Positions 40,297 to 59,181 of a stretch of 64,000 bases of DNA are shown piece by piece (the stretch's first letter is position 1; the number at the start of each line of letters is the position of its first letter). Under the pieces are notes generated by a model. The model did not search any database. It had not been told where the DNA came from and was given only the letters and a program-made list of their open reading frames with translations. The position numbers and the translations under genes were made by a program. The DNA is from Escherichia phage vB_EcoM_G2540-3: sequence record MK327944.1, one strand, 5' to 3'.

Positions 40297-40566
40297 TTAT
40301 CTAAGTAAACAGTATGCTTGGAACACTTTCTCCATCATCTTTTTAAATTCATGAATATCTATATAATGACTAGTTAAATCAGCATGATATAAAAAGTCTA
40401 AAAACTTTTCATGTGTGCTAACATATTCACTTTCATTTAATTCAGAAACATGACTTTCCCAATATCCAACACCAGTCTTATTTGGGAAAAATGAAATTTT
40501 CATGTATTGGTCAACATAGAAAATGCCATAATTTTCAATAGTAATAGAAATATTAATAAATTTCAT
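40297..40566 (-). CDS. hypothetical protein, 89 aa
   Basis: ORF only (55.x region). Confidence 0.45.
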   Translation of the reverse strand: MKFINISITIENYGIFYVDQYMKISFFPNKTGVGYWESHVSELNESEYVSTHEKFLDFLYHADLTSHYIDIHEFKKMMEKVFQAYCLLR

Positions 40567-40778
40567 ACATTCATCAACTTAGCCGCTTCAAGAGCTGCAT
40601 CTAGTGAATCAAATTGGTCAACATATTCAATCAATTCGCCATAATTGGCATATAACCACCATTGGCTAAATTCATACTCAAGGATGAATCCGTTTCCTTC
40701 AATTTGAGTTAAACCAATGCCATTTGTATTTACTTCATATCCAGCAAGACGCAAATCGTTAATAAGAGCTTCGTTCAT
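40563..40778 (-). CDS. hypothetical protein, 71 aa
   Basis: ORF only. Confidence 0.45.
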   Translation of the reverse strand: MNEALINDLRLAGYEVNTNGIGLTQIEGNGFILEYEFSQWWLYANYGELIEYVDQFDSLDAALEAAKLMNV

Positions 40779-49548: not shown

Positions 49549-50460
49549 TTAAGATTTAAGTAAATCAACAATTTTAATTAACTTTTCACGCTCAGATTTA
49601 GCTTTACTACTCAGTCCAGATAGTCTGAAAATTTCATCATCATATTGTTGAATAGAAATATTCAGCTCTTCAATCTGTTTATTAAAATAATCAATTTGTT
49701 CAGAATGTTTTTCGTTACTACGAACTGATACAGGTTTTGTAGGCAATTTAGTTGAACTAGATTCATCCGGGCGATAAATTAAAATACAACTTGAACCAAT
49801 TGGACATTTTGCACCAGATGAATATTCTAATGTTCCGGCTTCTTTTAAAACTTCAAAAGCTAAACAGAGATGATGCCCCATATTAACATAATCAGTAGAG
49901 CGAGCTCTGATGTAATAATCATCTCCGCGAATACTAAATTTAAAGCATTTAAGGTCTTCTGTATTATTGGTCTTAAAAATCATTTGTTTATTTAGACCTT
50001 TAGCTAATCGAGCGCCTAATGCTAATAATCGTCGTTGATTTTCCCACAAATCTGCGATCATTTGGTCAAATGATAATTTCGGCATTAGTCGACCATAAAG
50101 GTCATATCCTTTATTATAATTACGAAGGATTTCACTCGCATTAATACGAGACAATGCTCCAATTTTATTAAGGGCTTTCATAATGCGATTAGATAAACTC
50201 ATTCCAGATCCGTTTGTTCGCTGCAAATGTTTTTCTAATCCAAATCCAATATCAACTTTAAACTTATCTAAAATTTCTGCATGAACATCTCTGTCAATAA
50301 CATTCAAATCCAAAGTTGAGTTAAATCTATGAAAAAATTTATCTGGCTCTGCACTGCGAAATACAGTCCATTCATTCATCATTTTTTTATTAACTAAAGA
50401 TTTAATTACTGCATTGACATTATTAATTACTACTGACATATTTTCCTCACTCAATTTCAA
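49549..50460 (-). CDS. hypothetical protein with C-terminal coiled coil, 303 aa
   Basis: Long ORF; C-terminal coiled-coil-like region. Confidence 0.55.
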   Translation of the reverse strand: MKLSEENMSVVINNVNAVIKSLVNKKMMNEWTVFRSAEPDKFFHRFNSTLDLNVIDRDVHAEILDKFKVDIGFGLEKHLQRTNGSGMSLSNRIMKALNKIGALSRINASEILRNYNKGYDLYGRLMPKLSFDQMIADLWENQRRLLALGARLAKGLNKQMIFKTNNTEDLKCFKFSIRGDDYYIRARSTDYVNMGHHLCLAFEVLKEAGTLEYSSGAKCPIGSSCILIYRPDESSSTKLPTKPVSVRSNEKHSEQIDYFNKQIEELNISIQQYDDEIFRLSGLSSKAKSEREKLIKIVDLLKS

Positions 50461-50854
50461 TTTTACTAAATATACAGAATAAGATGGAACAGACTATATA
50501 AGCACCACACACAGATTGAACTAATACCATTCCAAAGAACCAAATAATATTATCAAACAGTGTCTGTTTTACGTCGAAAGGACGTAAACTTACAGTAATA
50601 TTATCACCTTTTTCTATTGAAGAATACATCTCTGGGGAAATATATTCACTAAATCTATAACCGTCTTTGAGTTCATATACGGCAATAAACGATAAACTAG
50701 ACCCCTTTCCTTGAGTTCCTGCAAGGGTATTAACTACAGTAACATCATAATCTTTATAATGCATATAATCATTAATAGCATAATAACCATATGCAATTAC
50801 TATACATAAACAACATATCAATAAATTCAATCTTTTAATTATCAACTGTTTCAT
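50447..50854 (-). CDS. membrane protein, 135 aa
   Basis: N-terminal and C-terminal hydrophobic helices. Confidence 0.5.
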   Translation of the reverse strand: MKQLIIKRLNLLICCLCIVIAYGYYAINDYMHYKDYDVTVVNTLAGTQGKGSSLSFIAVYELKDGYRFSEYISPEMYSSIEKGDNITVSLRPFDVKQTLFDNIIWFFGMVLVQSVCGAYIVCSILFCIFSKIEIE

Positions 50855-50909
50855 AATAATCTCAATTAAAAGGGCTTAGAACCATTATACCATCCTTGGT
50901 ATAAAGCAG

Positions 50910-51437
50910 TTATGCGAGTACCGTCTTTAACCGTTCTTCAAACTTCCGAAGAGTATTCTGGCGTTCAGCTCTTTGCTTTTTGTAAGTTTCAATACGTTCT
51001 GAAATGAGAGTGTATCGTTCATTTACTGATTCTTTCATAAAATCAGGAATTTCACGAGAAGCTTTAATCTCGTCAAATTTATCAATAACAGCTTGCTCTT
51101 CAGCAATTAAGTTATCATACATCAAAATATCTTTCTTGATGAACTCAATATCTTCTTGAGTTACACGAGATAATTTAGATGCTTTATCCTTTTTGTACTG
51201 TTCGTTAGTATCACGAGACCAGTGTAATGTACGATTTTTATTCGTATTCTTGTAAATTTCTACAATACCAATCTCATCAATAATAACGATCCAATTCCAA
51301 CGAGATTTGTAAATTTGCCCTCCGTCAACCGTGATTTCACCTCCGATTGAGATGTCATTAAAGAACTTGCTTTGTGCTTCAGATTTAAATTTACCATCGT
51401 TGTAATTTACCGGGTTGAAAATATCTTTAGCGTTCAT
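50910..51437 (-). CDS. hypothetical protein, 175 aa
   Basis: RBS GGAGG; early promoter at 51465..51494. Confidence 0.55.
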   Translation of the reverse strand: MNAKDIFNPVNYNDGKFKSEAQSKFFNDISIGGEITVDGGQIYKSRWNWIVIIDEIGIVEIYKNTNKNRTLHWSRDTNEQYKKDKASKLSRVTQEDIEFIKKDILMYDNLIAEEQAVIDKFDEIKASREIPDFMKESVNERYTLISERIETYKKQRAERQNTLRKFEERLKTVLA

Positions 51438-51464
51438 TTGTGTTCCTCCGTAGTTGATAGTTGT

Positions 51465-51494
51465 ATAGTACCACAGAGGAACAGTCTTGTAAAC
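51465..51494 (-). promoter_or_regulatory. T4-type early promoter
   Basis: Minus strand GTTTAC, 18 nt, TACTAT, followed by ACAACTATCAACT. Confidence 0.6.
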
Positions 51495-51496
51495 AA

Positions 51497-51811
51497 CTAA
51501 AAGAAACTTCTTTCACAATTTTTTCCACTGAACCAAGCGCTCACTGCTTTCTTAGTCTCAGGAGCAGTGTTATCCATAAACCATTCAAAGGCAGCCTTTT
51601 TATGATTCTGGAGGGCTTCTCGGGCTTTAATCTGCTCACGGTCTATTAACACTAACATATGAGCCTTTCTTGTCACCAAGGGCTTCTTATGATTCTTGGA
51701 GTATTCCCAGTCATTTGTCCAACGCATTGTCGTTGCGAACTGATGAATCGCGTCTTTAATTTTAGTTTCATAAATTTCACGAGCCTTTGAGTATAACATC
51801 ACTACCTCCAT
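51497..51811 (-). CDS. hypothetical protein, 104 aa
   Basis: ORF only. Confidence 0.45.
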   Translation of the reverse strand: MEVVMLYSKAREIYETKIKDAIHQFATTMRWTNDWEYSKNHKKPLVTRKAHMLVLIDREQIKAREALQNHKKAAFEWFMDNTAPETKKAVSAWFSGKNCERSFF

Positions 51812-51900
51812 TTACCAGTTTAATTCTAATCATCTTTTTGATGGCAGTCCATATAATCTATTTCTGAACTGCCTTTTTGTCATAGAAGTCCTCTTATGAA

Positions 51901-52869
51901 TTATTTCAGAAGAGTAACCTCAGCAATTTCTTCCCAACCGTTTTTGTCGGTCATAATAAAGTCAGCAAGATAAAGAGCAGTACGCAGTGAAACATTGCGT
52001 AAACGATTAACATTAACTTTCATCCATGATAATGCTTTATAAGTTTCTTCATCAGAAAGACCGCGCTTTTGCATCATGTCAGTTGAAAGAATAACATCTT
52101 CAACCCTGACCATAATTTCTTCATTAGTGTGAACACCCAAATCCAAATAAACCGAGCGGGACACTAATGCTTGTAAATGTGGAGCAAGTTTAGTACCACG
52201 GTCTAATTCGCGGTCAATGTCAACGTTTGTGATAAAAACAATCGTTCCTTTAAATTCAAACTCACGCTCAATGCCTTTTTCTTCTAAGTAAGAAGACGCA
52301 GTGCTCCAGCAGACTTTACGGGTCTCTCCGGTGTCCAGAGCAGCTTTCAGAAGATTAAGAATGTCCATATCAGAGAAAACATCCACATCATCAATCAAAA
52401 GGACAGAATTCTCTTCACGATTATTCCAAAGCTGTTCATAAAGACCAATACCAGAGATTTTACCATTAATGCTTTTATATTCAATGTATCCAATATCATT
52501 TGCTTTATTTAAAGCTTTATCTAAAGAATACGTTTTACCAATGCCTGCCGCACCAGAGATAATTAATGAACGAATGTTTCCGTTAATAATACCATTCGTC
52601 ATCATTCCCATAACATTAAATCTTTTATTAATGCGGGTTTTCATATCTTCATACGATTCTTTAACTTCTTCAACTTTTACACCATCATATGAAATGTCTG
52701 ATTTGTAAACCCAAACACCGCGACGTTTACCGTCAATTTCAACAAAAACTTTACCATCTCCTTGTGCATCTACTGGAGCATTATCTGGGAACCATTCGCC
52801 TAAGAGCTCAAAAGTTCCAGAGATTTCTTTACCGAAGTAGATACCCTTATTGATAGTTACAGTTTTCAT
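51901..52869 (-). CDS. P-loop (AAA-like) ATPase, 322 aa
   Basis: Walker A GAAGIGKT and Walker B LLIDDVD; start trimmed to ATG 52869 after RBS GGAG. Confidence 0.6.
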   Translation of the reverse strand: MKTVTINKGIYFGKEISGTFELLGEWFPDNAPVDAQGDGKVFVEIDGKRRGVWVYKSDISYDGVKVEEVKESYEDMKTRINKRFNVMGMMTNGIINGNIRSLIISGAAGIGKTYSLDKALNKANDIGYIEYKSINGKISGIGLYEQLWNNREENSVLLIDDVDVFSDMDILNLLKAALDTGETRKVCWSTASSYLEEKGIEREFEFKGTIVFITNVDIDRELDRGTKLAPHLQALVSRSVYLDLGVHTNEEIMVRVEDVILSTDMMQKRGLSDEETYKALSWMKVNVNRLRNVSLRTALYLADFIMTDKNGWEEIAEVTLLK

Positions 52870-52903
52870 TTTATTCTCCAAATCCGTATCAGTTGATAGT
52901 TGT

Positions 52904-52933
52904 ATAGTACCATAAAGCTTTATGCTTGTAAAC
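52904..52933 (-). promoter_or_regulatory. T4-type early promoter with conserved leader module
   Basis: Minus strand GTTTAC, 18 nt, TACTAT, followed by ACAACTATCAACTGATACGGATTTGGAGAATAAA-ATG. Confidence 0.6.
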
Positions 52934-52956
52934 AATTTTGTGAAAAAATTTTTGAA

Positions 52957-52984
52957 ATAAAAAAAAGGGAGCCCGAAGGCTCCC
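52957..52984 (-). terminator. intrinsic terminator after 52987..53997
   Basis: Minus RNA GGGAGCC-UUCG-GGCUCCC followed by UUUUUUUUAUUU. Confidence 0.8.
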
Positions 52985-52986
52985 TA

Positions 52987-53997
52987 TCATTTATAATAAC
53001 TTCGGTGGTTTTCAAGATAAACCTGTTCGAGGAAATTATTCCAAAAGCTCATATCTACTGTTTTAGGCATACCATTCTTAGAAGCTTCAGTAGATGCTGC
53101 TTCTACTTGATCGACCACATCTTCCAAAAACTCTTGAACTGTTTTAAATGGATGTTTACCCAACTTCACGTCGAGAATAAATGGAGCATCTTGGAGTGGA
53201 TAAACCAAGTCACCAGTTTTGTAAATTTCCAATAGTTGAAGTCCACCACGACAAGCATGACTCAGAGCTTTCCAGTCAATACCTTCATTGGCTTCGGCCT
53301 TACGAGCACGTTCACCATATTCAGCATCTAATTTGTTCAGTGACTGCTTAAGCTCAATAAGAGAAAGAGTTGTCTGATATTTACGACCCAACACTGTGTA
53401 AAACGTTTGTGGGCCTGTTTTCTCATGATTATGGAACACCCATTCACAGAATTCGTTTTCTGGAAGACGATGCTTAATATCTTCAACTTTAGTACGACGC
53501 TGCTTAATGGAACCGTCTTCTTGGTAATCAACCCATTGCTCAGGGATTTGATTAACTACTTTCAATACATCGCGTAATGCAGCCAAACGAGAACCCTTGA
53601 CACCATATTTAGAAGCTTGCTTGCGGACATATCCTAAATAGGATTTCATGTTAGTCGTATAAAAACGAGAACGGTTGTCTTGAATAAACTTCCACACATC
53701 AGGCAAATCAGATTTAACCACTAGTTCAGGTGGAGTGTGAAGCATATCCAATGCTACAGTTTCACCATCTACTGCTAATTTAAAGAAATATTTAAGACTG
53801 TATAGTTCATGGTCAATATCATCTTTAGTGTTTTTAGATGATGTGTTGTTGGTATTTTTACTCATATGCTCTTTAACATTTCCGATAAGAATATCACGAG
53901 CAGGAGGAACAAAGATTTCTTTAAAATCTACATCAGATTCTGGGGTAGAAGTTCCATAAAGATGACTACCAAAATAAGACTTAACTACAGTTTTCAT
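52987..53997 (-). CDS. Pol-beta-superfamily nucleotidyltransferase-fold protein, about 336 aa
   Basis: GS...DVD motif (SYFGSHLYGTSTPESDVDF) typical of minimal nucleotidyltransferases; start set at ATG 53997. Confidence 0.55.
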   Translation of the reverse strand: MKTVVKSYFGSHLYGTSTPESDVDFKEIFVPPARDILIGNVKEHMSKNTNNTSSKNTKDDIDHELYSLKYFFKLAVDGETVALDMLHTPPELVVKSDLPDVWKFIQDNRSRFYTTNMKSYLGYVRKQASKYGVKGSRLAALRDVLKVVNQIPEQWVDYQEDGSIKQRRTKVEDIKHRLPENEFCEWVFHNHEKTGPQTFYTVLGRKYQTTLSLIELKQSLNKLDAEYGERARKAEANEGIDWKALSHACRGGLQLLEIYKTGDLVYPLQDAPFILDVKLGKHPFKTVQEFLEDVVDQVEAASTEASKNGMPKTVDMSFWNNFLEQVYLENHRSYYK

Positions 53998-54760
53998 TAT
54001 TAGACCTTTCATAATCTTCATTAAATTGTACAATCAATCGATGATAATTAGATTTTGGATATCCTAATTTACTTATATAAGTTCCGAATGACCCACGTTT
54101 AGGTCTATTTAATTTAATCCATAACTTATAAAGTAAGTCATAGTCTTGCCAATGTTTACCAGTTCTTTGTCTAATTTTAGATGAATTTGATTGTTTCTTT
54201 TTAGTTTCAAAATTATTCAAAGATTTTTTGACTGCAGCAGAGTGTTTTTCTTTAACTCCCGGTCGTTTAAAAGCAGCTTTCACCCCTTTAGATATTTTTT
54301 CTTTAACTTCCGGTTTGTTTTGTGCTTCTAACTGGGATTCTGAAATTTTAGCCCTTATTTCAGGAAGACTTAATGTTATCGAACGTTTTTCTCTGTATTC
54401 ATTAGACTTCCACATTTCTTTCATTGTATTAGAATGTATTTTTGAAAATTTTTCTCTAACTAACTGATATCCTCTTGAAGTTAATTTGAGATTTCTTCCT
54501 AAAGAATCTTCTCCAAAATTATAAAATGACCACCATGCATAAATTAATCCAGGCGAATTATAATGAATTTTAGCTAAAAGCCAATGGGCTATAAAATGCT
54601 CTCTAGCTGTTAATAAAACTAGATTATCAGAATCATCATTACCACCAATACAAGATGGAATAATATGATGCTTTTCCGTATAAAAATTTAATTTAGATTT
54701 ATCTAATTTTCTGAGTTTTCCTTTCTTAATTAAATTATTATATACTTTAGTATAATTCAT
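53981..54760 (-). CDS. HNH (Mob-type) homing endonuclease, 259 aa
   Basis: HHIIPSCIGGNDDSDNLVLLTAREHFIAH motif; C-terminal LLYKLWIKLNRPKRGSFGTYISKLGYP module. Confidence 0.8.
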   Translation of the reverse strand: MNYTKVYNNLIKKGKLRKLDKSKLNFYTEKHHIIPSCIGGNDDSDNLVLLTAREHFIAHWLLAKIHYNSPGLIYAWWSFYNFGEDSLGRNLKLTSRGYQLVREKFSKIHSNTMKEMWKSNEYREKRSITLSLPEIRAKISESQLEAQNKPEVKEKISKGVKAAFKRPGVKEKHSAAVKKSLNNFETKKKQSNSSKIRQRTGKHWQDYDLLYKLWIKLNRPKRGSFGTYISKLGYPKSNYHRLIVQFNEDYERSNNENCS

Positions 54761-54834
54761 TGGTTCTTCGTCTCATTTAATTTTGCTTTGCATTTATAAC
54801 ACATGTCTGTTCCACTTGAAATAAACATATTTCC

Positions 54835-55401
54835 TCACTTTGAAATCATAGTTGGAATGACAGAATCAAGATAAGTCTTTAGCGCAATAGCTTCGTCTTT
54901 TGTAAATGTAACAATATGTGCTCGAAAATCGTCAATTTGGCGAATAGTTAAGACATCTCCTTCTTCATAACATTTTGATACATTTAAAACAGTTTCATCA
55001 TTCTGATCGCACTGATCGCAAGCGTTAGTAATAATAGCATTGCAATTTTTGAGCCATTTTAAACTATGTTTTCTTTCATTAGAATAATAAAAATATTTAA
55101 TCTTAGCTATAAAACTATCCCAATGGATAACTGATAAACACATTGACTCACTTTTAATATTAAATCCTGGGCATGAAGAATAAAAATGAATTTTGTGCTC
55201 ATCATTGATGCTTACTATTTTATCAGTATAAGGATATTCAATTTGGATTAAATGAACGATTTCACTAGGCGTAAAATATAGCATATCGTCTTCTTGCGTC
55301 AAACGATACATGTTATTTACTTTTTCTATAGCCAATTCACCAAAAAGCGGACTAACTTCTAATACTAATCGTTTCATATTGATTCTCTTCGACTCACTCA
55401 C
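54835..55401 (-). CDS. hypothetical protein, 188 aa, GTG start
   Basis: RBS AAGGAG 10 nt upstream of GTG; Cys-containing C-terminal half. Confidence 0.5.
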   Translation of the reverse strand: MSESKRINMKRLVLEVSPLFGELAIEKVNNMYRLTQEDDMLYFTPSEIVHLIQIEYPYTDKIVSINDEHKIHFYSSCPGFNIKSESMCLSVIHWDSFIAKIKYFYYSNERKHSLKWLKNCNAIITNACDQCDQNDETVLNVSKCYEEGDVLTIRQIDDFRAHIVTFTKDEAIALKTYLDSVIPTMISK

Positions 55402-55536
55402 AATTACATACTCCTTTGAATAATATCAATAATGTTGTTCACCAGATTATAAGTAAACATTGGGTAATTATATTGAATCATCACATACACAACAAACAAA
55501 ACTTTCATTCTCTTCTCCTTGACCGTTGACAAGATT

Positions 55537-55566
55537 ACTATACCATAACCTTGTCAACTTGTAAAC
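55537..55566 (-). promoter_or_regulatory. T4-type early promoter with -10 inside a 9-bp inverted repeat
   Basis: Minus strand GTTTAC, 18 nt, TATAGT; arms GTTGACAAG and CTTGTCAAC. Confidence 0.6.
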
Positions 55567-55568
55567 CA

Positions 55569-55742
55569 TTAAATGACGTTTTCAATAAAATTCTGAAGCT
55601 TTGTGTGAGCATCAACCATAATTTTCATTTCTTCCTTTGCGAAAGCTGTACCTCTTTCCCGAGCAGAATACTCATAGTCAGAAACTGCATTAGCATATTC
55701 TTCAATTAGCTTCATTAAAAACATTTGCTTTTCAGTTTTCAT
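55569..55742 (-). CDS. hypothetical small helical protein, 57 aa (below ORF-track cutoff)
   Basis: RBS AGGTGG 5 nt before ATG; first member of an array of four small genes. Confidence 0.45.
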   Translation of the reverse strand: MKTEKQMFLMKLIEEYANAVSDYEYSARERGTAFAKEEMKIMVDAHTKLQNFIENVI

Positions 55743-55926
55743 TATTCCACCTAATCATTTCAAGATATTGAACTAACTTAGCTTTGGATTTATCCAAATC
55801 CTTTTTAGCTGCTTCTATACCGTCGTATGAATATCCTTCACAGTGCTCAACTGCCAATTGATATGAATCTATTTCAATATCACGTGCTAATTTAATGATT
55901 TTTTCAAACTGTTCACGTGTTAGCAT
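55732..55926 (-). CDS. hypothetical small helical protein, about 64 aa
   Basis: Start trimmed to MLTREQFEKIIKLARDIE; resembles the next gene upstream. Confidence 0.45.
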   Translation of the reverse strand: MLTREQFEKIIKLARDIEIDSYQLAVEHCEGYSYDGIEAAKKDLDKSKAKLVQYLEMIRWNNEN

Positions 55927-55927
55927 A

Positions 55928-56131
55928 CTAAACTCTCGTATTATGATCAATAATTTCATCAAGAAACATATCTAACGCTTCTAAAGCATTATCAACTTTA
56001 GCTTCAAATTTTTCAATACCTTTATTTGCAATGCCTGCCGAAAACCAAGCAAAGTCACTAAGTTCCTCATCTGCTTTGCGAATTAAAGCTACCAATTCTT
56101 TAATTTTATCTGCTTGTTCAATTCTAGTCAT
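55928..56131 (-). CDS. hypothetical small helical protein, about 67 aa
   Basis: Start trimmed to [19 protein letters not shown] with RBS GGTGG; resembles its neighbour. Confidence 0.45.
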   Translation of the reverse strand: MTRIEQADKIKELVALIRKADEELSDFAWFSAGIANKGIEKFEAKVDNALEALDMFLDEIIDHNTRV

Positions 56132-56319
56132 TATTCCACCACATATGAAAGAGAGAATATTGCACACGCCATATGAGTTGCAGCTTCATCACACATATCA
56201 TAACGTTTCTTAAGAAGTTCTACAAGTTCTTCACTAGTAACTTCATCCATGTCGACGAAAAAATCACCATTAATGATGACGTAGATATTTCCTTCTTGAT
56301 TGAGTGCTTCAATTTTCAT
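56131..56319 (-). CDS. hypothetical small acidic protein, about 62 aa
   Basis: Start trimmed to [10 protein letters not shown] with RBS GAGGAG; early promoter at 56348..56377. Confidence 0.45.
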
Positions 56320-56347
56320 GATGTTCTCCTCTTTATCCGATAGTTGT

Positions 56348-56377
56348 ATAGTACCACAGCTCAAACGGAAAGTAAAC
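56348..56377 (-). promoter_or_regulatory. T4-type early promoter
   Basis: Minus strand GTTTAC, 18 nt, TACTAT, followed by ACAACTATC. Confidence 0.6.
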
Positions 56378-56381
56378 CGGC

Positions 56382-56410
56382 AAAATGAAAAAAGTCTCCC
56401 GAAGGAGACT
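56382..56410 (-). terminator. intrinsic terminator after 56415..56801
   Basis: Minus RNA AGUCUCC-UUCG-GGAGACU followed by UUUUUUCAUUUU. Confidence 0.8.
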
Positions 56411-56414
56411 AATG

Positions 56415-56801
56415 TTATTCGAGGGAAAGAAGATACTTACTCTGGTAAAACATTCCAGTAATATCATCTATCGTGCTTTGAATGGCTGGAGGCATTTCTT
56501 TATAAATGCTGTTAGATTGATCTAGTATGCGATCAATCATTTTAATTGTGTCGGTAGGAAGTTTACTGGCATCTGGAATTGAAGGCGTGTATTTTCTACC
56601 AGAATACCCCAAATATTGCTCACCAAATTTATCAATCAAATCTGGCAACTCGGAGAAAATAAAATCGTATGCTTTGTGTCTAGCATAACTTTTAGTTTCA
56701 AAATGTGCAGAATGAAAATAAGCTTGTGCAGCCATTAATAAACCTAAGTATTCATCTGCCTTTGAAGGTTTTCCACTTTGTGAAAAGTCGCTGAATTTCA
56801 T
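56415..56801 (-). CDS. hypothetical protein, 128 aa
   Basis: ORF followed by a strong terminator. Confidence 0.5.
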
Positions 56802-57091
56802 TCAGTCTCCAATTTAATGTTCATAATTCTAGCGTATGATTGTGCCATCTCCGCGCCTCGCTCTATACATTCAAAATCGGAAGAGCACGGGTCATTTTTA
56901 TAAGTCGTTCGCATAAAACTATAGAACTGTTCAGATGATTCTACGCTTTTGTTTTCAAAAAGCATATAAACGTGTCTAATACCAGATTCCATAAATTTAT
57001 CAAAATGAGAATCGACATTCGCTTCAATTGGTGGAGATAAAGCAAATGCTAATCCTAGCATGGCAAATAGTGCCGTTGCTTTTAAGGCCAT
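56798..57091 (-). CDS. rI: lysis-inhibition regulator rI, 97 aa
   Basis: 97 aa with N-terminal signal-anchor MALKATALFAMLGLAFALSPPIEA; position before tk. Confidence 0.75.
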   Translation of the reverse strand: MALKATALFAMLGLAFALSPPIEANVDSHFDKFMESGIRHVYMLFENKSVESSEQFYSFMRTTYKNDPCSSDFECIERGAEMAQSYARIMNIKLETE

Positions 57092-57103
57092 AAAGGCCTC
57101 CTA

Positions 57104-57316
57104 TCATTTTTGTCCTGTATTTACTTTATGCCGATGCACGGCCTTAACTTTATCAAGGTATTTTTCAAAATTTCGCAATCTAGTATAGTCTGCCGGAGAT
57201 TGGTTGAGTGATACTTCTCGACGCAAAGCTGAAATGATATTTCCAACTTCCCTACGAATTTCATCTAATTGAAGAACAGTAAGATTGCGAAGTTGCTTTT
57301 CAGTTAATTGTAGCAT
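57104..57316 (-). CDS. hypothetical protein, 70 aa (rI.1 position)
   Basis: Late promoter TATAAATA at 57342..57349 upstream. Confidence 0.5.
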
Positions 57317-57341
57317 ATATACCCCTTTAGTTAGATAAACC

Positions 57342-57349
57342 TATTTATA
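57342..57349 (-). promoter_or_regulatory. late promoter (before 57104..57316 and rI)
   Basis: Minus strand TATAAATA. Confidence 0.55.
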
Positions 57350-57358
57350 ACTTTTGCA

Positions 57359-57940
57359 CTAACCGAGCTTTTTAGTTAATTCATTCCAATGTTTTCTACA
57401 CAAAGAAACATAAATTTCATCACCAATACAGATTTGATTACCTTCTTTAACTGGTGTTCCATCTTCCATTAATCGAGCTGTTATAATAGCTTTTTTACCA
57501 CAATGACAAACTGCCTTTAGTTCAATAAGTTTATCTGCAATCGCCAAAAGTTCTTTAGAACCTTCAAATAATTTTCCAGCGAAATCAGTCCTTAGCCCAT
57601 AAGCCATAACAGGAACATTATATGTATCAACAATTCGACTTAATTGATGCACCTGTTCAGTTTTTAAAAACTGAGCTTCATCTACAAATACACAATGAAT
57701 ATCTTTTTGTGCTTCAGCCCATTTATAGAACTCAAAAATATCCATATCATCCGTAATAATATTCGCTTCCTGCTTAATTCCAATGCGAGAAACGACTTCA
57801 CAGACAGAATCGCGAGTATCAATAGCAGGCTTAAGAACTAATACACCCATTCCGCGTTCTTTATAATTATGTGCAGCAGTCAAAAGAGAAGCAGATTTTC
57901 CAGCATTCATTGCTGCGTAAGTAAAAATTAAACTCGCCAT
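57359..57940 (-). CDS. tk: thymidine kinase, 193 aa
   Basis: P-loop AAMNAGKS; 193 aa; zinc-ribbon-like CHCGK...C near the C-terminus. Confidence 0.9.
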   Translation of the reverse strand: MASLIFTYAAMNAGKSASLLTAAHNYKERGMGVLVLKPAIDTRDSVCEVVSRIGIKQEANIITDDMDIFEFYKWAEAQKDIHCVFVDEAQFLKTEQVHQLSRIVDTYNVPVMAYGLRTDFAGKLFEGSKELLAIADKLIELKAVCHCGKKAIITARLMEDGTPVKEGNQICIGDEIYVSLCRKHWNELTKKLG

Positions 57941-57949
57941 ATCACCTTC

Positions 57950-58135
57950 TTAAAGCATATTCACATAAGCTATTAATTCGTTTTCTTTCTTATCAAACCG
58001 ATCAGCAAATTCTTCTTGCTGTTCGGGAGATAGCGGGCCGTATTCATCATAAAAGGTGTTTGCTTCTGTATGCTCATCTAGAAGTTCATGGATAAGCTCA
58101 AACAATTTATCTTTTTGTTCTTTACTCAGACTCAT
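57950..58135 (-). CDS. hypothetical acidic protein, 61 aa
   Basis: ORF only. Confidence 0.45.
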   Translation of the reverse strand: MSLSKEQKDKLFELIHELLDEHTEANTFYDEYGPLSPEQQEEFADRFDKKENELIAYVNML

Positions 58136-58305
58136 ATATTAATTTCCAGGAGTTTTAAAATAATTCGCTTTTGCTTAAATATTTCCATAGTTAAATGACC
58201 AGTATCTTTTTGACCGATTCCAATGGCAAAACCTTTATTGACAGCGAGTTCAATTAAATTATCAAGCTCACGTAACACTTCATACTGTAACTCAAAACTA
58301 TTCAT
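58132..58305 (-). CDS. hypothetical small protein, 57 aa (below ORF-track cutoff)
   Basis: MNSFELQYEVLRELDNLIELAVNKG...; ATGA-coupled at both ends. Confidence 0.4.
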   Translation of the reverse strand: MNSFELQYEVLRELDNLIELAVNKGFAIGIGQKDTGHLTMEIFKQKRIILKLLEINI

Positions 58306-58514
58306 TTCGGTTTACCTTCTTTAACGAAATCTGGATAAGGATAAAATCCCGAATAAAATCCTTCACCTTTATGATTGATGCATCCTTTATTAGAACAATA
58401 GCACCAATAATCGAAATCACAAGCCATTTCATCGTTGCATAAAGCAAAAACAACTGGCCATTTACACTTTTCACAATGGGCATTTTTAAGAATACTAGTT
58501 TGGCTCATAACCAT
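58302..58514 (-). CDS. Cys-rich small protein, 70 aa
   Basis: CEKCKW...C..D...YWCYCSNKGCINH pattern suggests metal binding. Confidence 0.5.
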   Translation of the reverse strand: MVMSQTSILKNAHCEKCKWPVVFALCNDEMACDFDYWCYCSNKGCINHKGEGFYSGFYPYPDFVKEGKPK

Positions 58515-58732
58515 GTAACCTTTAAGCAGTATTCTTCTACATGCTGTTTACGACCTTTCTTATCAATAAAGGTATATTCAACGAATGTTCCAATGTAGTC
58601 TTTATCTACATCATGCGGACTATTAATTGGACATTTAGTACGGCAAATGCGTTCCCATTGACGAATAATTACTGCCTTATTCTTTGGGTCATATGGATGT
58701 GGATAATGTATATTCATAATAACGGTTCCCAA
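58505..58732 (-). CDS. hypothetical protein, 75 aa
   Basis: ORF only. Confidence 0.45.
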   Translation of the reverse strand: MGTVIMNIHYPHPYDPKNKAVIIRQWERICRTKCPINSPHDVDKDYIGTFVEYTFIDKKGRKQHVEEYCLKVTWL

Positions 58733-59181
58733 TCAACAATCACAATTTCTAATTTAGAGGAATATGTATCTAAAATCCCCTCAATAATATCCCAGTTCCC
58801 TTTACCTATGCCTGCACCAATCCTAGGCATATAGATTGTAGGTTTAATCAGTTTATTTTCACCAAACTCATTTAATTCTAACATACAATTCATTAAAGCG
58901 GAATACTCAAAATTTGGCCCTGGTTGAAATTGAGTATAAAGGTTGAAGCAATACGCTTTATGAGTCCTAAAATATTTTTCATAGACTGAGTAAGAACCGA
59001 GTTTAGTTACATCACCCCATTCAGTCTGTAATTTATCAGCTTCCAAAATTTTAGGGAAAGCTTTGGTTAATTGACCCGCTACGCCTGAACCCATAGTATG
59101 AAAACAATTGCATCCATGCGCAATATTTTTACCTTCAGCGAAAAGGGCGACAATATCGCCCTTGATATATTTTACAATCAT
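58714..59181 (-). CDS. macro-domain protein (putative ADP-ribose binding or hydrolase), 155 aa
   Basis: KGDIVALFAEGKNIAHGCNCFHTMGSGVAGQL and IYMPRIGAGIGKGNWDII match macro-domain core motifs. Confidence 0.6.
   Translation of the reverse strand: MIVKYIKGDIVALFAEGKNIAHGCNCFHTMGSGVAGQLTKAFPKILEADKLQTEWGDVTKLGSYSVYEKYFRTHKAYCFNLYTQFQPGPNFEYSALMNCMLELNEFGENKLIKPTIYMPRIGAGIGKGNWDIIEGILDTYSSKLEIVIVDWEPLL

Follow-up and report, generated by a model that had tools for sequence, protein, structure and literature searches.

Three DUF7438 genes and one unrelated gene make up a small early gene array shared by Escherichia phage vB_EcoM_G2540-3 and T4

Four consecutive small open reading frames (ORFs) in Escherichia phage vB_EcoM_G2540-3 (MK327944.1) raise the question of how many of them are copies of one another and what their products do during infection. 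Even in T4, the large lytic phage studied in most depth, roughly half of the genes are without a function, and many small early accessory genes have recently proved to be counter-defence factors, tk.4 (AdfM) being an example. We analyzed a window of 64,000 nucleotides, the whole stretch of DNA considered here, in which the four ORFs lie on the minus strand, start with ATG, and encode proteins of 57, 64, 67, and 62 aa. The coordinates given in an initial annotation made from the sequence alone were exact, as judged from the ORF listing and from the coding sequences (CDSs) of phages G9062 and T4. The annotated CDSs of G9062 coincide with all four ORFs, and the T4 annotation identifies them, in the same gene order, as mobD.2a, mobD.3, mobD.4, and mobD.5. 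By DNA comparison, positions 55300-56900 match Escherichia phages vB_EcoM_G2540 and G9062 with 100% identity; the array region is present at 90% identity or above in 502 phage records, and the phage can be assigned to Tequatrovirus. The genes and their flanks, from upstream to downstream, are as follows.

Positions 57950 to 58135, minus strand: tk.2-like gene, a DUF7438 copy directly upstream of tk; 61 aa, pI 4.3, phrog_653.
Upstream flank: tk, positions 57359 to 57940; rI.1, rI, and rI.-1 (56415 to 56801).
Positions 56131 to 56319, minus strand: mobD.5; 62 aa, pI 4.2, phrog_3024, no Pfam family.
Positions 55928 to 56131, minus strand: mobD.4; 67 aa, DUF7438/phrog_653, predicted helical hairpin.
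Positions 55732 to 55926, minus strand: mobD.3; 64 aa, DUF7438/phrog_653, predicted helical hairpin.
Positions 55569 to 55742, minus strand: mobD.2a; 57 aa in its full-length form, DUF7438, phrog_2758.
Downstream flank: mobD.2; mobD.1, positions 54835 to 55401 (Pfam T4_y05I_N/C).
Downstream flank, continued: mobD, an HNH homing endonuclease gene, positions 53981 to 54760; nrdC.11, a nucleotidyltransferase gene.

The T4 genes mobD.2a to mobD.5 (older names y05G/F/E; UniProt P39238, P39237, P39236) are orthologues arranged in identical order, flanked by rI.-1 on one side and mobD.2/mobD.1 on the other, and the promoter and terminator are shared. At the amino acid level, mobD.3 and mobD.5 are each 97% identical to their T4 counterparts; mobD.4 is 75% identical and has 67 aa here rather than the 60 aa of T4 because of an indel at the tip of the predicted hairpin. 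The mobD.2a gene is intact at 57 aa, whereas the T4 RefSeq sequence carries a frameshift that leaves a 38-aa ORF and a C-terminal fragment. Overlapping ORFs also exist on the plus strand at positions 55551-55709, 56031-56213, and 56173-56343, where neither G9062 nor T4 has an annotated CDS.

Three sequence signals around these genes are relevant to transcription.

Positions 56393 to 56410, minus strand: intrinsic terminator after rI.-1, AGTCTCCTTCGGGAGACT then TTTTTT; found by terminator scan, annotated in G9062 and G50, and identical in T4.
Positions 56348 to 56377, minus strand: T4-type early promoter of mobD.5; recognized by sequence reading and conserved in T4.
Positions 55537 to 55565, minus strand: second early-type promoter-like site (TTTACA, 17 nt, TG-TATAGT); scan match at 10 of 12 positions plus an extended -10.

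The terminator separates the rI operon from the mobD array, and the sequence between it and mobD.5 reads GGTTTACTTTCCGTTTGAGCTGTGGTACTATACAAC. The mobD.5 promoter consists of a -35-like GTTTAC (56377-56372), a 17-nt spacer (measured from TTTACT), and an extended -10, TGgTACTAT, ending at position 56348; a generic sigma-70 scan missed it because only 8 of the 12 consensus positions match. Across the terminator-promoter stretch, mean column identity to T4 and two IMG/VR relatives is 97%, with no change in the promoter hexamers. Primer extension has mapped the mobD.5 promoter of T4, whose RegB-insensitive transcript served as an internal control (PMC1702504). The genes mobD.5, mobD.4, mobD.3, and mobD.2a are an immediate-early transcription unit read from this conserved promoter. 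No terminator follows mobD.2a, and the transcript therefore probably continues into mobD.2 and mobD.1; the second promoter-like site, located just past the mobD.2a stop codon and ahead of these two genes, may also be active as a promoter. The description of the array as early genes of a T-even phage is borne out by the conserved T4 promoter and by time-resolved RNA-seq and proteomics of T4, in which mobD.3 and mobD.4 are early in both RNA and protein, mobD.5 and mobD.2a are early in RNA without a protein class, and tk.1 and tk.2 are early in RNA and middle in protein (PMC9697503).

Each ORF was also said to have its own Shine-Dalgarno (SD) sequence, and an SD-like motif is indeed found 5-7 nt before every start: GAGGAG for mobD.5, GGTGG for mobD.4, a weak GAGAG for mobD.3, and AGGTGG for mobD.2a. 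The proposed chain of overlapping start and stop codons is present in part, since mobD.5 and mobD.4 overlap by one base (ATGA) and mobD.3 and mobD.2a by 11 nt, but mobD.4 and mobD.3 are separated by a 1-nt spacer (TAG-T-ATG). A search of positions 54700-58400 against Rfam identified no RNA family.

The reading frames themselves carry the mark of selection. Pooled Nei-Gojobori dN/dS, calculated against T4 and five IMG/VR relatives with small counts and non-independent pairs, is 0.08 for mobD.2a, 0.03 for mobD.3, 0.28 for mobD.4, and 0.29 for mobD.5, with synonymous changes dominating in mobD.3 and mobD.2a. These values of 0.03-0.29 indicate that all four frames are under purifying selection. 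The initial annotation had named a lack of evidence for translation as grounds for discarding the array; the ratios and the detection of the T4 mobD.3 and mobD.4 proteins provide such evidence.

Are the encoded proteins related? The second and third ORFs, mobD.3 and mobD.4, had been proposed as paralogues from their shared N-termini, and direct alignment of this pair is marginal (BLASTP E = 0.002; Smith-Waterman z = 3.3, a score reached by 5 of 500 shuffles). BLASTP among the array proteins ranges from E = 0.002 at best down to no hit, and mobD.2a against mobD.3 yields z = -0.2. Direct pairwise alignment is thus too weak to establish paralogy, and profiles are needed. The Pfam model DUF7438 (PF24219; 57 positions, gathering threshold 25 bits) matches mobD.2a at 59.8 bits, mobD.3 at 64.1 bits, mobD.4 at 58.1 bits, and the tk.2-like protein at 68.5 bits, in each case near full length, which places three of the four array ORFs and the tk.2-like ORF in the family. 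DUF7438 spans PHROG 653/2758/4859, with mobD.3, mobD.4, and the tk.2-like protein in phrog_653 and mobD.2a in phrog_2758. Since the Pfam model may itself include these sequences, homology was assessed independently with leave-one-subfamily-out HMMs, each built from all subfamilies save the one tested. These returned mobD.2a at E = 2e-5, mobD.3 at 2e-8, mobD.4 at 8e-10, and the tk.2-like protein at 9e-7, compared with E of at least 0.018 for the best unrelated sequence among the 504 ORFs of the window. HMMs of single subfamilies did not recover the other subfamilies (E = 0.1-1.8), whereas the pooled family profile did. When alignments of orthologues were compared by hhalign, mobD.3 and mobD.4 matched over their full length at E = 4.7e-6, the pairs mobD.4-mobD.2a, mobD.4-tk.2, and mobD.3-tk.2 matched at E = 0.008-0.02, and mobD.3-mobD.2a showed no similarity.

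The proposed relationship of mobD.3 and mobD.4 therefore stands, with significant pairwise similarity emerging from the profile comparisons, but the initial count of two paralogues was too low: the array is duplicated as described and includes three related genes, mobD.2a among them, and a fourth lies at 57950-58135. The three array genes mobD.2a, mobD.3, and mobD.4, at about 25% identity, are ancient paralogues, and the tk.2-like gene is a further one; no nucleotide-level repeat was found between the paralogues, indicating that the duplications are old. The family HMM identified exactly four DUF7438 members in the 64-kb window. In T4 outside positions 50,001-53,999, whose homologous stretch in the window is without a match, it identified only mobD.2a, mobD.3, mobD.4, tk.1, and tk.2. 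The T4 genes tk.1 and tk.2 are situated 2 kb from the array, beyond rI and tk. T4 has both of them, whereas vB_EcoM_G2540-3 is without tk.1 and has one copy at this site, which is 54% identical to T4 tk.2 next to a tk that is 98% identical. Three sets of candidates were rejected as members, namely the window ORF at 40563-40778 (marginal at E = 0.02-0.3, and belonging to DUF5495), T4 pseT.1 (marginal at E = 0.043), and both rI.1 and a 57-aa ORF at 58132-58305.

The remaining array gene, mobD.5, is not a member of DUF7438. It has no match to the Pfam model at E <= 1, hhalign against each DUF7438 subfamily gives a probability of at most 0.5%, and its AF2 model, with three strands and two helices (pLDDT 89), has a different predicted fold. 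The view of the array as four helical proteins accordingly applies to mobD.3, whose model is a helical hairpin (pLDDT 93), and fails for mobD.5. Residues C43, H49, and C52 of mobD.5 are invariant, and its sequences form 10 clusters at 90% identity.

The mobD.3 model, derived from an alignment of 21 sequences, is an antiparallel helical hairpin with helices at residues 4-29 and 34-63 and a pTM of 0.76, and the other DUF7438 copies align with mobD.3 along their whole length. DUF7438 products are acidic proteins of ~60 aa, each predicted to form a single antiparallel two-helix hairpin. The conserved positions are located at the base of this hairpin and have a heptad-like hydrophobic spacing: M-h-T-x-E-Q-x-x-K-I-x-x-L is N-terminal, and L-x-x-F-L lies close to the C-terminus. 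Variation in mobD.4 and tk.2, examined in cluster representatives, is concentrated at the opposite end: the mobD.4 tip (residues ~22-41) is hypervariable, with indels that generate forms of 60-67 aa, while helix 2 does not vary in its C-terminal half. This variability may reflect a relaxed constraint on the loop rather than diversifying selection, dN/dS being below 1 everywhere. All five proteins (the array and the tk.2-like protein) are acidic, with pI values of 4.2-5.3; across the family the pI is 4.1-6.0 with a median of 4.4 (n = 35), and the net charge is -6 for mobD.4, -10 for the tk.2-like protein, -3 for mobD.3, and -2 for mobD.2a. The acidity of DUF7438 argues against nucleic acid binding. 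Foldseek comparison of the mobD.3 model with the PDB produced no significant match (best E = 0.44), and sequence searches of the PDB returned none for mobD.5 or the family profile.

We found DUF7438 to be essentially confined to T-even-like phages of enterobacteria. An exhaustive profile search of 1.84 billion representative proteins returned only 31 DUF7438 representatives at E <= 1e-3, a search with mobD.4 alone returned 5 IMG/VR loci, and tblastn identified divergent members in T-even-like phages of Escherichia, Shigella, Salmonella, Citrobacter, Enterobacter, and Edwardsiella, the carriers including Gaprivervirus TH54, Salmonella phage STML-198, Citrobacter phages Moon and Merlin, and Edwardsiella phages PEi20 and PEi26. 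These divergent genes usually adjoin tk or sit in the mobD array, and across several Tevenvirinae genera the family keeps its length and pattern at 25-45% identity. Copy number varies between phages from three to six per genome. Between mobD.2 and mobD.1, phages G50 and L007 carry an additional, fifth copy together with a Phage_tudor gene; L004 is without mobD.2a, TH54 has three tandem copies, one of them in the mobD.5 position, and in Bas43 mobD.5 is fused to a y05I_C-like domain (P0103). The extra copy of G50 and the TH54 copy, like T4 tk.1, are DUF7438 members. One weak member was also seen on a metagenomic contig of 62.7 kb that carries an integrase.

What these proteins contribute to infection is constrained by genetic screens of T4. 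In CRISPRi-ART, mobD.2a, mobD.3, mobD.4, mobD.5, tk.1, and tk.2 are all scored 'Not Fit' (PMC11879866), and HIDEN-SEQ transposon data classify the same six genes as 'Non-essential', with no significant effect for any of them in the conditional table examined (bioRxiv 10.1101/2025.11.20.689424). T4 also remains viable when the stretch from nrdC.11 to mobD.3 is deleted (PMC9825161). The protein P0052 looks like a fusion resulting from this T4 nrdC.11-mobD.3 deletion. Redundancy among four or five paralogous copies could mask a phenotype, but this is an excuse and not evidence. Our search of the literature on mobD.2a to mobD.5 and DUF7438 found no functional study, target, or phenotype, and PADLOC and NCBIfam gave no meaningful match for the array proteins.

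The hairpins are small, acidic, expressed early, dispensable under laboratory conditions, and restricted to one lineage; they turn over in copy number and have a variable tip on a fixed base. Together these features led us to a tentative reading, somewhat short of an even chance, in which the hairpins are accessory host-adaptation factors, for takeover or counter-defence, that bind host or defence proteins and are neither replication nor structural proteins. The initial annotation had likewise pointed to host takeover or anti-defence, a reasonable idea for which the support is indirect. DUF7438 hairpins would bind their protein targets stoichiometrically at an early stage of infection. The fold, and probably also an interface for dimers or four-helix bundles, would come from the conserved base, and the variable tip would decide whether a given host, defence, or rival-phage protein is a target. 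Adaptation to different hosts would then proceed by duplication, loss, and diversification of the tip. Oligomerization is suggested by the heptad-like pattern only. A proven counter-defence gene, tk.4 (AdfM), which acts against DarTG2, is nearby in the early cluster, and like mobD.2a to mobD.5 it is a dispensable accessory gene under laboratory conditions and variably present among relatives; it has no sequence or fold relation to these proteins, however, and a conditional phenotype is reported for none of mobD.2a to mobD.5. The argument from neighbourhood is also a weak one, as most T4 early accessory genes sit in such clusters. Two further observations speak against protein binders of this kind: the dN/dS of 0.03-0.08 for mobD.3 and mobD.2a fits a fixed target better than an arms race, and the predicted hairpin fold is a generic one, with no Foldseek match in the PDB at E < 0.4. 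If the hairpins are indeed modular inhibitors of host proteins, they would offer a compact scaffold for engineering phage host range.

A bolder version of this proposal, which we consider doubtful, describes the DUF7438 proteins as diversifying early effectors with a four-helix-bundle base and a hypervariable tip, where each paralogue would neutralize a different host immunity or stress protein and the changes in copy number and the tip indels seen among near-identical T-even phages would record an arms race still in progress. The invariant Cys-His-Cys of the unrelated mobD.5 would mark it as a separate effector or partner, dependent on metal and co-expressed with the hairpins.

The hairpins might instead regulate the phage's own programme, either as lysis-inhibition accessories or as small transcription or DNA-binding four-helix bundles like CsoR/FrmR. 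The array is directly downstream of rI.-1 and rI, and rI.-1 and rI.1 are reported to act as modulators of lysis inhibition (PMC2962797). The array is nevertheless divided from the rI operon by a terminator and has a promoter of its own, and its products, unlike RI, have no evident signal peptide or membrane segment in their sequences. The downstream mobD.1 bears Pfam domains named 'y05I-like putative transcription factor', and in geometry the mobD.3 model comes closest to the CsoR/FrmR helices (query-normalized TM 0.86-0.89). Helices 1-2 of CsoR/FrmR, and SSV1 D-63, are antiparallel two-helix hairpins of similar length, the TM of mobD.3 to FrmR/CsoR reaching 0.89. DUF7438 differs from all of these, however, with E of at least 0.44, no third helix, a Cys-His-Cys metal-ligand pattern that is not conserved in the family, no Pfam match, and an acidic composition. 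Identity as a CsoR/RcnR/FrmR repressor was consequently rejected, the overlap being limited to two helices of a generic hairpin at a non-significant Foldseek E of 0.56-0.78, with no match to Pfam Trns_repr_metal and no conservation of the H-C in the mobD.3 loop. The family pI of 4.1-6.0 is moreover unfavourable for DNA binding, and T4 screens report no plaque or fitness phenotype. Taken with these points, a role in regulating the phage itself appears improbable.

We attach still less weight to the idea that the hairpins are DNA mimics or decoys blocking a nuclease or a DNA-binding host protein, which would be a special case of counter-defence. Early expression and the charge of -6 in mobD.4 and -10 in the tk.2-like protein, within a family of median pI 4.4, are in its favour, as is the annotation in T4 of the acidic Arn, a DNA mimic used by that phage. 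Neither in sequence nor in fold was any similarity to Arn, Ocr, or other mimics found, however; mobD.3 (-3) and mobD.2a (-2) are only mildly acidic, and a 60-aa hairpin presents a short charged surface unless it is oligomeric.

Equally improbable is that the ORFs are functionless, as neutral filler or hitch-hikers kept in a hyper-plastic region by linkage to the homing endonuclease gene mobD: they are dispensable in every T4 screen, are naturally lost, truncated, or fused (the T4 mobD.2a frameshift, Bas43 P0103, and L004), and adjoin an HNH homing endonuclease gene that some near-identical phages have and others lack, but purifying selection acts on all four frames, the family is kept across several Tevenvirinae genera, protein products are detected in T4, and the array persists in G9062, which is without mobD.

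The array genes and the DUF7438 family are already catalogued, and neither is a new element. With the anatomy of the array and its family assignment close to certain, the gain lies in sorting the true relatives, in placing the four or five DUF7438 copies of a genome at two sites, in locating the variation at the tip, and in exposing two product names as artefacts. The first of these names, 'helicase loader', is attached to phrog_4859 and to some phage records. We rejected it for these proteins of 57-67 aa, in which Pfam and NCBIfam identify no loader family; the sole link to it is a weak match to phrog_4859, itself a DUF7438 subfamily, and the T4 loader gp59 is the product of a separate 217-aa gene. 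The second, 'Molybdopterin-guanine dinucleotide biosynthesis protein MobD', is given in RefSeq to orthologues of mobD.4, mobD.5, and mobD.1, and was likewise rejected, with no MobA/MobB match in Pfam or NCBIfam. As the product name MobD is shared by the unrelated neighbours mobD.1, mobD.4, and mobD.5, it was apparently misread from the T4 locus designation 'mobD.x', which in turn probably derives from the MobD homing endonuclease.

In some Tequatroviruses, two additional genes separate mobD.2 from mobD.1 (phage G50, L009:2504-2957; a further relative's locus, L007:4729-4914), one encoding a fifth DUF7438 copy of 61 aa and phrog_4859 type and the other an 88-aa Phage_tudor protein, whereas mobD.2 adjoins mobD.1 directly in the window. 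Gaprivervirus TH54 carries three DUF7438 genes head to tail with ATGA-type junctions (L010:2938-3562). The first of these lies at the place held by mobD.5 in Tequatroviruses and thus mobD.5 seems to be restricted to Tequatrovirus. The T4 pseT.1 product (L012; T4 134908-135135) matched the DUF7438 family HMM marginally (E = 0.043 among 1234 T4 ORFs), and may be either a very distant relative of the family or a chance match.

In P0103, a 96-aa protein of Escherichia phage TadeuszReichstein (Bas43), the first ~50 residues of mobD.5 are joined to a T4_y05I_C-like domain, the domain type found at the C-terminus of mobD.1. Such a fusion implies that deletion or recombination has occurred across the array in nature. 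A repeated 12-nt junction, GGTGGAATAATG, combines an SD and a start codon and occurs in two exact copies in the whole 64-kb window:

55740-55751, minus strand, copy 1, at the mobD.2a start
56129-56140, minus strand, copy 2, at the mobD.4 start

At least two matches to this junction were obtained in 5 of 100 shuffles, and its twofold occurrence could represent a duplication relic or a recombination joint between cassettes. Within mobD.5 itself (window 56131-56319), C43, H49 and C52 are unchanged in each of the seven cluster representatives, one of which has just 66% identity. These residues may bind a metal or make up a motif sensitive to redox state.

The 57-aa protein encoded at window 55569-55742 is reduced to 38 aa by a frameshift in the T4 RefSeq mobD.2a (L002:3994-4166; T4 58049-58165 and downstream), where the missing C-terminus, KEEMKIMVDAHTKLQNFIENVI, is found in a different frame directly downstream. 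Because a 174-bp mobD.2a is annotated in the T4 stock used for the HIDEN-SEQ transposon screen (bioRxiv 10.1101/2025.11.20.689424), the RefSeq frameshift is either a sequencing error or strain-specific.

On the tk side, the gene content of window 58132-58732 differs from that of the tk-proximal region of T4, and T4 tk.1 is absent from the window. Following the tk.2-like gene are:

58132-58305, 57-aa ORF with no family, next after the tk.2-like gene
58302-58514, Phage_zn_bind protein of tk.3 type
58505-58732, DUF7202 protein, preceding tk.4

The ORF at window 58714-59181 occupies the position of tk.4, which in T4 is annotated as an A1pp-motif phosphatase and has been reported as AdfM, a macrodomain factor that counters DarTG2 (2025 preprint). 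Given that report and the position of the window ORF, a proven counter-defence gene, with this ORF as the candidate, may lie 2.4 kb from the array.

Orthologues of mobD.4, mobD.5 and mobD.1 bear the RefSeq name 'molybdopterin-guanine dinucleotide biosynthesis protein MobD' (window 55928-56319; relatives' loci L001, L002 and L009), and DUF7438 copies are labelled 'helicase loader' in Pharokka-style records. No match backing either name was found in Pfam or NCBIfam, and both look like annotation artefacts. The window also contains the homing endonuclease gene mobD:

53981-54760, mobD, HNH homing endonuclease, present

In G9062 two unrelated genes occupy the place of mobD, yet the array is 100% identical; the presence or absence of mobD is a local polymorphism typical of homing-endonuclease insertion.
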